Below, in pieces: positions 13,411 through 13,424 of a stretch of DNA of 64,000 nt. This stretch comes from Escherichia coli (lineage in GTDB: Bacteria > Pseudomonadota > Gammaproteobacteria > Enterobacterales > Enterobacteriaceae), in assembly GCF_050320075.1 (NCBI RefSeq), contig NZ_CP190018.1. One strand, written 5' to 3'. The translations under genes and the position numbers were made by a program. The notes under the pieces were generated by a model. The model saw nothing but the letters and a program-made list of their open reading frames with translations, was not told the DNA's origin and did no database searches. Numbering within the stretch: the stretch's first letter is position 1; each line of letters starts with the position of its first letter.

Positions 13411-13424
13411 TTGTCATGTGACAA
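13411..13424. promoter_or_regulatory. 14-bp perfect palindrome TTGTCATGTGACAA upstream of mtnK
   Basis: Perfect inverted repeat 37 bp upstream of the mtnK start codon; candidate operator. Confidence 0.2.

Follow-up and report, generated by a model that had tools for sequence, protein, structure and literature searches.

An inverted repeat upstream of mtnK in Escherichia coli as a predicted half of a two-part operator for the SorC-family repressor MtnR

Like MtnR (YjhU) of E. coli, the Bacillus subtilis protein DeoR is a repressor of an operon for pentose/nucleoside catabolism; its tetramer occupies an operator made up of two halves, whose centres lie about 22 bp apart as counted on the printed operator (PMC11229326). 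Single half-operators give no stable DeoR binding (PMC11229326). DeoR is also the closest solved structure to MtnR (8r7y, E value 1e-41 for an alignment that runs from HTH to C-terminus); the next solved homologues are SorC and LsrR, and CggR is distant (E values 9e-5 to 2e-4). B. subtilis CggR, which belongs to the winged-helix subclass of the SorC family and acts on the gapA operon, is likewise a tetramer on two tandem half-operators, in that case of 100-fold unequal affinity (PMC11229326). It differs from MtnR in both its DNA-binding domain and its motif, and is a distant relative only.

A different analogy was drawn in the study that described the E. coli operon (PMC12632272), namely to E. 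coli DeoR with deoO and to GlpR, where CRP activates a catabolic operon and a repressor that responds to a sugar phosphate acts at an operator over the −10. Those two regulators are of a different protein family; MtnR carries the SorC-type domain PF04198 (Sugar-bind) and not a DeoR-C domain.

The operon itself consists of mtnK, mtnA and ald2, together termed the 'DHAP shunt' (Huening et al. 2025, PMC12632272), a pathway that enables growth on 5'-deoxynucleosides in ExPEC lineages, ST131 among them. The repressor of the operon is YjhU, now named MtnR: a deletion strain is derepressed by about 5 log2 on glucose, and mtnR deletion derepresses a 126-bp promoter fusion 4-fold (PMC12632272). CRP is needed for growth on 5-deoxyribose and binds a 255-bp promoter fragment in electrophoretic mobility shift assays (EMSAs), with hyper-shifts at high CRP concentration (PMC12632272). 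The 126 bp upstream of mtnK suffice for control by both MtnR and CRP, while 66 bp are inactive; the primary start, P1, was placed 72 bp upstream of mtnK by Vent polymerase extension on a cDNA pool, and the software that the authors used predicted two CRP sites, at −35.5 and −17.5 from P1 (PMC12632272). The binding site of MtnR was stated in that study to be unknown; a semi-palindrome, CAAAT...ATTTG, was put forward by eye as a candidate, and the repeat with which we are concerned here is not mentioned (PMC12632272). In ChIP-exo experiments in K-12, a strain without the mtnK operon, YjhU gave zero peaks (PMC6237786).

We analysed a 64-kb stretch of E. coli DNA (hereafter the window), which is identical to the leuX island end in many ExPEC genomes, including those of ST131, Nissle 1917 and ATCC 25922 ('Seattle 1946'). 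The mtnK promoter region within it is present in about 1076 of 5426 complete E. coli genomes. The genes of the cluster, from the start of the operon to the regulator, are as follows.

13380–13387, Shine-Dalgarno sequence AAGGAG of mtnK (from the sequence)
12115–13374, minus strand, mtnK, 5-methylthioribose/5-deoxyribose kinase, operon gene 1 (TIGR01767, E value 8.6e-157; mtnK in the RefSeq annotation)
10990–12105, minus strand, mtnA, isomerase (NF004326 / TIGR00512)
10318–10959, minus strand, ald2, class II aldolase of the DHAP shunt (fuculose-phosphate-aldolase-like, NF005984; identified in PMC12632272)
about 7433–10131, minus strand, IS66-family insertion (tnpA, tnpB, transposase) separating ald2 from the transporter gene (family matches)
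6503–7360, minus strand, putative sugar transporter, the final operon gene in other strains (Pfam Ureide_permease / Sugar_transport)
5476–6462, plus strand, mtnR (yjhU), SorC-family repressor of the DeoR/HTH subclass (PF04198, E value 9e-80, plus an N-terminal HTH)

The mtnR gene and the transporter gene that closes the operon are convergent, and the linked repressor encoded by mtnR has the PF04198 and HTH domains of the SorC family and homology to DeoR 8r7y. An initial annotation of this DNA had seen no regulator gene in the cluster; that statement is wrong, because mtnR, the gene of a published repressor, is present in the window at 5476–6462. The flanks of the IS66 element are collinear with a Citrobacter locus (L001), with an 8-bp overlap, and the putative transporter is 98–99% identical to its Citrobacter orthologue. 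In this strain the element stands between the transporter gene and the regulated promoter.

Upstream of mtnK we distinguish the following elements, the dyads being without assigned strand.

13411–13424, O2, promoter-proximal dyad, proposed weaker MtnR half-operator (cross-genus motif model, position O1+21, dyad in orthologues)
13424–13429, minus strand, TATAGT, inferred −10 hexamer, between and overlapping O1 and O2 (conserved TAnnnT slot)
13432–13445, O1, promoter-distal dyad TTTACATTTGATAA (mtnK sense), proposed stronger MtnR half-operator (rank 1 in the motif model)
13449–13470, minus strand, CRP-like site of 22 nt, AAAATCTACATGTGTCACAAAT, its right half TCACA without mismatch, its left half poor (6 of 10 core matches)
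13659–13674, O3, distal dyad TTGTACATATGTACTT with a 12-bp perfect core (rank 2 of 63985 in the motif model)

The repeat O2 reads TTGTCATGTGACAA on the window strand and TTGTCACATGACAA on the reverse complement, which is the sense of mtnK. Its nearest base lies 37 nt upstream of mtnK, whose ORF begins at 13374 on the minus strand, and the distance given in the initial annotation is thus correct. Its description there as a perfect 14-bp palindrome needs amending: the two strands differ at the two central bases, and the repeat consists of 6-bp arms (TTGTCA / TGACAA) around a TG centre that is not self-complementary, with 12 of 14 positions symmetric. Truly perfect 14-bp palindromes do occur in the window, six times, at other places. 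The centres of O1 and O2 are 21 bp apart in E. coli, which corresponds to two helical turns, and both dyads lie inside the published 126-bp fragment, which reaches about position 13500. The authors' CAAAT...ATTTG candidate maps to 13436–13453 and overlaps O1, not O2.

The symmetry of O2 is unremarkable when taken by itself. The window contains 24 perfect inverted repeats with 6-bp arms and a 2-bp spacer, against 18.7 ± 4.0 in composition-preserving shuffles, so this class shows no excess over chance, and the symmetry of O2 carries no significance of its own. The window has a single match to the exact pattern TTGTCANNTGACAA; of 100 shuffles, 9 had one or more. Both O1 and O2 match a more generic pattern, TTNNCANNTGNNAA, which has three matches in the window against 1.9 expected; as a count this is not significant, and two of the three matches are the adjacent O1 and O2. 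The count of this class of repeats, and the GC content of the region (33%), speak for the rival view, in which O2 would be a functionless chance repeat in AT-rich promoter or leader DNA and MtnR would act through O1, or through CAAAT...ATTTG, only. By our sequence comparisons, what lifts O2 above chance is its position and the conservation of its dyad in orthologous clusters.

A scan with the MtnK protein, taking one genome per species, yielded 14 loci, and one of 14 divergent E. coli alleles (UMB200201_11) was added through a query with Citrobacter sequence. The gene order mtnK-mtnA-ald2 is found in 13 of the 14 loci and an adjoining mtnR orthologue, with 58–99% identity, in 12; the other two loci, at which no mtnR is seen, are a Chloroflexi outlier (L014) and that of Xenorhabdus, which lies on a short contig. 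Since the whole leader is about 95% identical between Escherichia and Citrobacter, conservation between those two genera is uninformative, and their near-identity at O2, which reflects recent shared ancestry, leaves room for a chance repeat. A cross-genus alignment made with MAFFT was set aside; it had slid the Morganella O2 onto the E. coli O1, and we therefore relied on anchoring at TCACA and on a motif model.

With that anchor, one order of promoter elements is common to 15 of 15 promoters from seven genera: a CRP-like site ending in TCACA (6–9 of 10 core matches across the 15), 5–6 nt, O1, a linker of 6–7 nt and O2. The centres of O1 and O2 are separated by 21 bp in the Enterobacterales and by 20 bp in the Vibrionaceae. 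In all 15 promoters the linker and the first one or two bases of O2 form a TAnnnT hexamer (TATAGT, TATACT, TATAAT or TAGTAT), which lies 21–22 nt after the conserved TCACA. We looked for the motif in related clusters, where absence of the dyad would speak against an operator, and found it at the same promoter position in six other genera, 20–21 bp from a second dyad, which leaves the operator reading unrefuted. The operator-like position ascribed to the repeat in the initial annotation is thereby supported; its partner O1 and the CRP-like site had been missed there.

The dyad is kept across these genera while its sequence turns over. The literal arms TTGTCA..TGACAA are confined to Escherichia and Citrobacter, and the arms are TTTAC in other genera as against TTGTC in these two. 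Compared with the E. coli version given above (TTGTCACATGACAA), O2 reads TTGTCATATGACAA in Citrobacter sp. On2M, where it is a perfect palindrome, TTTTCACATGATAA in C. amalonaticus, TTTGCATATGTAAA in Providencia, TTTACATTTGTAAA in Morganella, TTTACAAATGTAAA in Aliivibrio, ATTACGTTTGTAAA in Vibrio and TTAACAACAGTAAA in Xenorhabdus. In a pair test on 12 distinct versions, 79.8% of cells were complementary, against 24–47% in slid registers, and two positions had changed on both arms with symmetry kept (T.A to G.C and A.T to T.A). The corresponding covariation score was attained by 3 of 500 shuffles, a control that ignores kinship among the sequences.

We built a symmetric 16-bp weight matrix from O1 and O2 sites of Providencia, Morganella, Vibrio and Aliivibrio only (consensus ATTTACATATGTAAAT) and applied it to loci outside the training set. 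This foreign-trained matrix placed E. coli O1 (13431–13446) first among 63985 window positions, at 15.8 bits; only 4 of 7 pairs are symmetric at that site in E. coli. E. coli O2 scored 1.9 bits, ranking about 240th of 63985 (the top 0.4%) and lying exactly at O1+21; all other offsets from 15 to 27 scored −9 or lower. In both Citrobacter loci and in Xenorhabdus, O1 ranked first and O1+21 ranked 6th–8th of 8–21 thousand positions. Over the four full-length held-out loci, O1+21 thus fell in the top 0.03–0.4%, with neighbouring offsets strongly negative. In the divergent E. coli allele, an 811-bp excerpt (L015), O1 ranked second and O1+21 ninth of 796 positions (1.1%).

The low score of E. coli O2, which agrees with the cross-genus consensus at only 9 of 16 bases, also counts on the side of a chance repeat; such a poor match means that O2 may bind weakly or only cooperatively. 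Against chance stand the occurrence of a dyad at exactly O1+20/21 in all 15 promoters from seven genera, despite sequence turnover and with changes on both arms, and the scoring of this single pre-specified offset in the top 0.4% or better in four held-out loci (1.1% in L015). The SorC-family protein DeoR, moreover, requires both half-operators to bind (PMC11229326). We therefore regard a chance origin of O2 as unlikely.

The motif accompanies the regulator. It is present in Citrobacter, Providencia, Morganella, Xenorhabdus, Vibrio and Aliivibrio, and the Chloroflexi locus that has no mtnR, a single negative control, contains zero sites above 6.2 bits. In Vibrio and Aliivibrio, genes for a ribose-type ABC transporter (ATPase, permease and binding protein) have been inserted between this promoter and mtnK, and a second motif pair, at sites outside the training set, precedes the unit of an RbsD/FucU gene. 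These clusters (L003–L005 and L012) have also gained that RbsD/FucU gene, which adjoins the divergent mtnR, and motif pairs are seen at two separate promoters beside mtnR, for example at 5755–5778 and 6299–6334 of L004. The HTH segment of MtnR, SRVTVVKYLQTAR, is nearly invariant among orthologues, and a shared motif is therefore to be expected. At the level of sequence, the comparison shows a two-dyad architecture that is conserved and linked to mtnR. Regulation of mtnR by its own product was considered and dropped, the best site upstream of that gene reaching only 5.5 bits in the cross-genus model.

The DeoR operator offers a further point of comparison. The right half, ATTTACATATGTTCAA, hardly departs from the consensus of the mtnR-linked dyads and scores 16.7 bits with our matrix, level with the training sites, which suggests that SorC-family proteins of the DeoR subclass may share their mode of DNA recognition. 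The two operators differ in arrangement, however: in that of DeoR the left half follows another palindrome (TTGAA-N6-TTCAA), whereas O1 and O2 both vary on a single motif; and DeoR binds ahead of the −10, from −60 to −21, whereas the candidate MtnR halves bracket the −10. The effector of DeoR is deoxyribose-5-phosphate; for MtnR we propose a phosphorylated intermediate of its own pathway. The operator sequence of E. coli DeoR is not known to resemble the O1/O2 motif.

We consider it reasonably likely that O2 is the promoter-proximal half of a two-part operator for MtnR. O1 and O2 each have dyad character and stand about two helical turns apart, and O2 overlaps the promoter region, at −7 to +7 of the predicted start or at about +23 to +36 of the published P1. 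As such it is probably an operator half-site of a known kind, that of the SorC family, and new for a system whose regulators are published. From these comparisons we infer which protein binds (MtnR), how its tetramer is arranged, what acts as inducer and where transcription starts. In the mechanism that we propose, an MtnR tetramer (a dimer of dimers) would place one dimer on O1 and one on O2, the former a strong and the latter a weak site, with cooperative binding across the −10 and start region. Together O1 and O2 would mask TATAGT and the region around the start of a promoter that depends on CRP, such that RNA polymerase could not open or leave it. During metabolism of 5-deoxyribose or methylthioribose, a phosphorylated intermediate of the pathway would bind the sugar-binding domain and cooperative binding of MtnR would be lost, a proposed release that parallels CggR, where a sugar phosphate reduces cooperativity. 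With repression lifted, CRP-cAMP at the upstream TCACA site would drive transcription.

The third dyad may add looping to this scheme. O3 is centred about 292 bp upstream of the mtnK ATG and ∼228–249 bp upstream of O1/O2. Its dyad, with outer bases altered symmetrically, persists in the divergent E. coli allele as well as in Citrobacter sp. On2M; in C. amalonaticus this position retains just a diverged ACAGCTGT core. We predict that it may be an auxiliary or looping operator, one that is dispensable for the 4-fold effect of MtnR on the 126-bp reporter (PMC12632272).

A second alternative is that O2 is the site of another protein, either an antagonistic second CRP site that uses TGTGA at 13417–13421 or the target of a GntR- or CytR-type regulator that reads TTGTCA/TGACAA. 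The TGTGA within O2 is a perfect CRP half-site, the TTGTC arms of Escherichia and Citrobacter do differ from the TTTAC of other genera, and the hyper-shifts at high CRP concentration (PMC12632272) would agree with additional CRP binding. As a CRP site of the form TGTGA-N6-TCACA, however, O2 fails at its other half, since the N6 partner, TACAT, matches TCACA at only 2 of 5 positions; neither of the CRP sites predicted by the authors, at −35.5 and −17.5, falls on O2 in our mapping; and across genera mtnR is the only regulator gene linked to the cluster. The spacing of CytR half-sites would not fit O2 either. We hold a site for another protein to be quite unlikely, and the conserved CRP-like site at 13449–13470 is an element separate from O2. 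Two copies of TGTCACA that were noticed by eye, at 13328–13341 (in mtnK) and at 13446–13459, were dropped with scores of −3.2 and −5.6, the former being attributable to coding constraint within mtnK.

Bacillus mtnK is preceded by a SAM/S-box riboswitch. That O2 acts in RNA, as a 5' leader hairpin affecting mRNA stability or translation, is very improbable. In its favour, the published P1, if correct, puts O2 in the leader, the predicted fold has a 5-bp stem from O2, and two-sided changes across genera would suit a hairpin too. Against it, that stem comprises 5 A/U-rich pairs; the leader is no more stably folded than shuffled sequence (z = −0.93, with 29 of 200 shuffles equally stable); the whole window has zero Rfam matches at gathering thresholds; O1 and O3 repeat the motif, and O3 lies upstream of both mapped start sites; and the conserved −10 of other genera abuts the O2 dyad, which would leave its left arm untranscribed. 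The fold score and the Rfam result likewise speak against a leader RNA element or riboswitch.

The conserved promoter layout bears on where transcription starts. At class II CRP promoters such as galP1 and melR, TCACA lies 21–22 nt before the −10, there is no good −35, and CRP is centred near −41.5/−42.5; the mtnK layout is alike. The conserved TCACA-N21/22-TAnnnT arrangement would accordingly describe a class II CRP promoter starting near 13417, inside O2. Unlike those promoters, mtnK of E. coli has a CRP site with a poor left half, and its published CRP sites, −35.5 and −17.5, are counted from another start. The published P1 (about 13442–13446) lies ∼25–29 bp upstream of the start predicted from TATAGT and puts O2 downstream of the start rather than over the −10. 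In a consensus promoter scan we found TTCAAA-18-AATAAT, with AATAAT at 13446–13451; these are probably the P1 elements of PMC12632272. The number of such sigma-70-like matches, four against 2.2 ± 1.3 in shuffles, is not above chance. The AATAAT −10 and the paper's favoured CRP site, which by its coordinates would be centred near 13477, are unconserved in the divergent E. coli UMB200201_11 and in Citrobacter, and the conserved CRP-like site at 13449–13470, judged by its coordinates, is probably the "second, lower confidence" CRP site of that study (PMC12632272).

On sequence grounds O2 is compatible with an operator under either map of the start, because both positions have precedents in the SorC family; for a position downstream of the start, should P1 be correct, the precedent is the CggR operator at +32 to +77 (PMC11229326). 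More tentatively, at somewhat short of even confidence, we propose that throughout the Enterobacterales and Vibrionaceae MtnR reads a 14–16 bp dyad (consensus ATTTACATATGTAAAT) in pairs 20–21 bp apart together with a distal third site, at a class II CRP promoter whose −10 and start lie between and inside the dyads. If this is true, the published start, −10/−35 and primary CRP site need revision and O2 sits on the true +1. We therefore flag a likely conflict with the published promoter map.

Repression through an operator combined with CRP activation is familiar biology, and the value of the result thus lies in a gap filled, not in surprise. The comparison supplies a predicted MtnR operator, of two dyads bracketing the −10 with O2 as one of them; the cross-genus motif can be used for prediction of the MtnR regulon, and it sets MtnR within the SorC/DeoR tetramer paradigm.

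Several further sequences were noted in the course of this work. Directly adjoining O2 is GAATGATAATCAAC (13398–13411), which pairs with the right end of O1 as an inverted repeat of 7 bp (TGATAAT / ATTATCA) and is kept in Citrobacter sp. On2M and altered in C. amalonaticus. An 11-base run within it matches the Fur-box consensus, GATAATGATAATCATTATC. The plus strand carries a sigma-70-like match, GTGACA-18-TAAAAT, at 13418–13447 (10 of 12 positions), of which the −35 is the right arm of O2. Elsewhere in the window, one of the perfect 14-bp palindromes, AAAGTAATTACTTT, is located at 18966–18979, 17 bp before the start of an ORF for a restriction endonuclease of the Alw26I/Eco31I/Esp3I type (18996–20735), itself just after genes resembling McrB and McrC (15532–18886); the palindrome could be a candidate control element of this restriction system.
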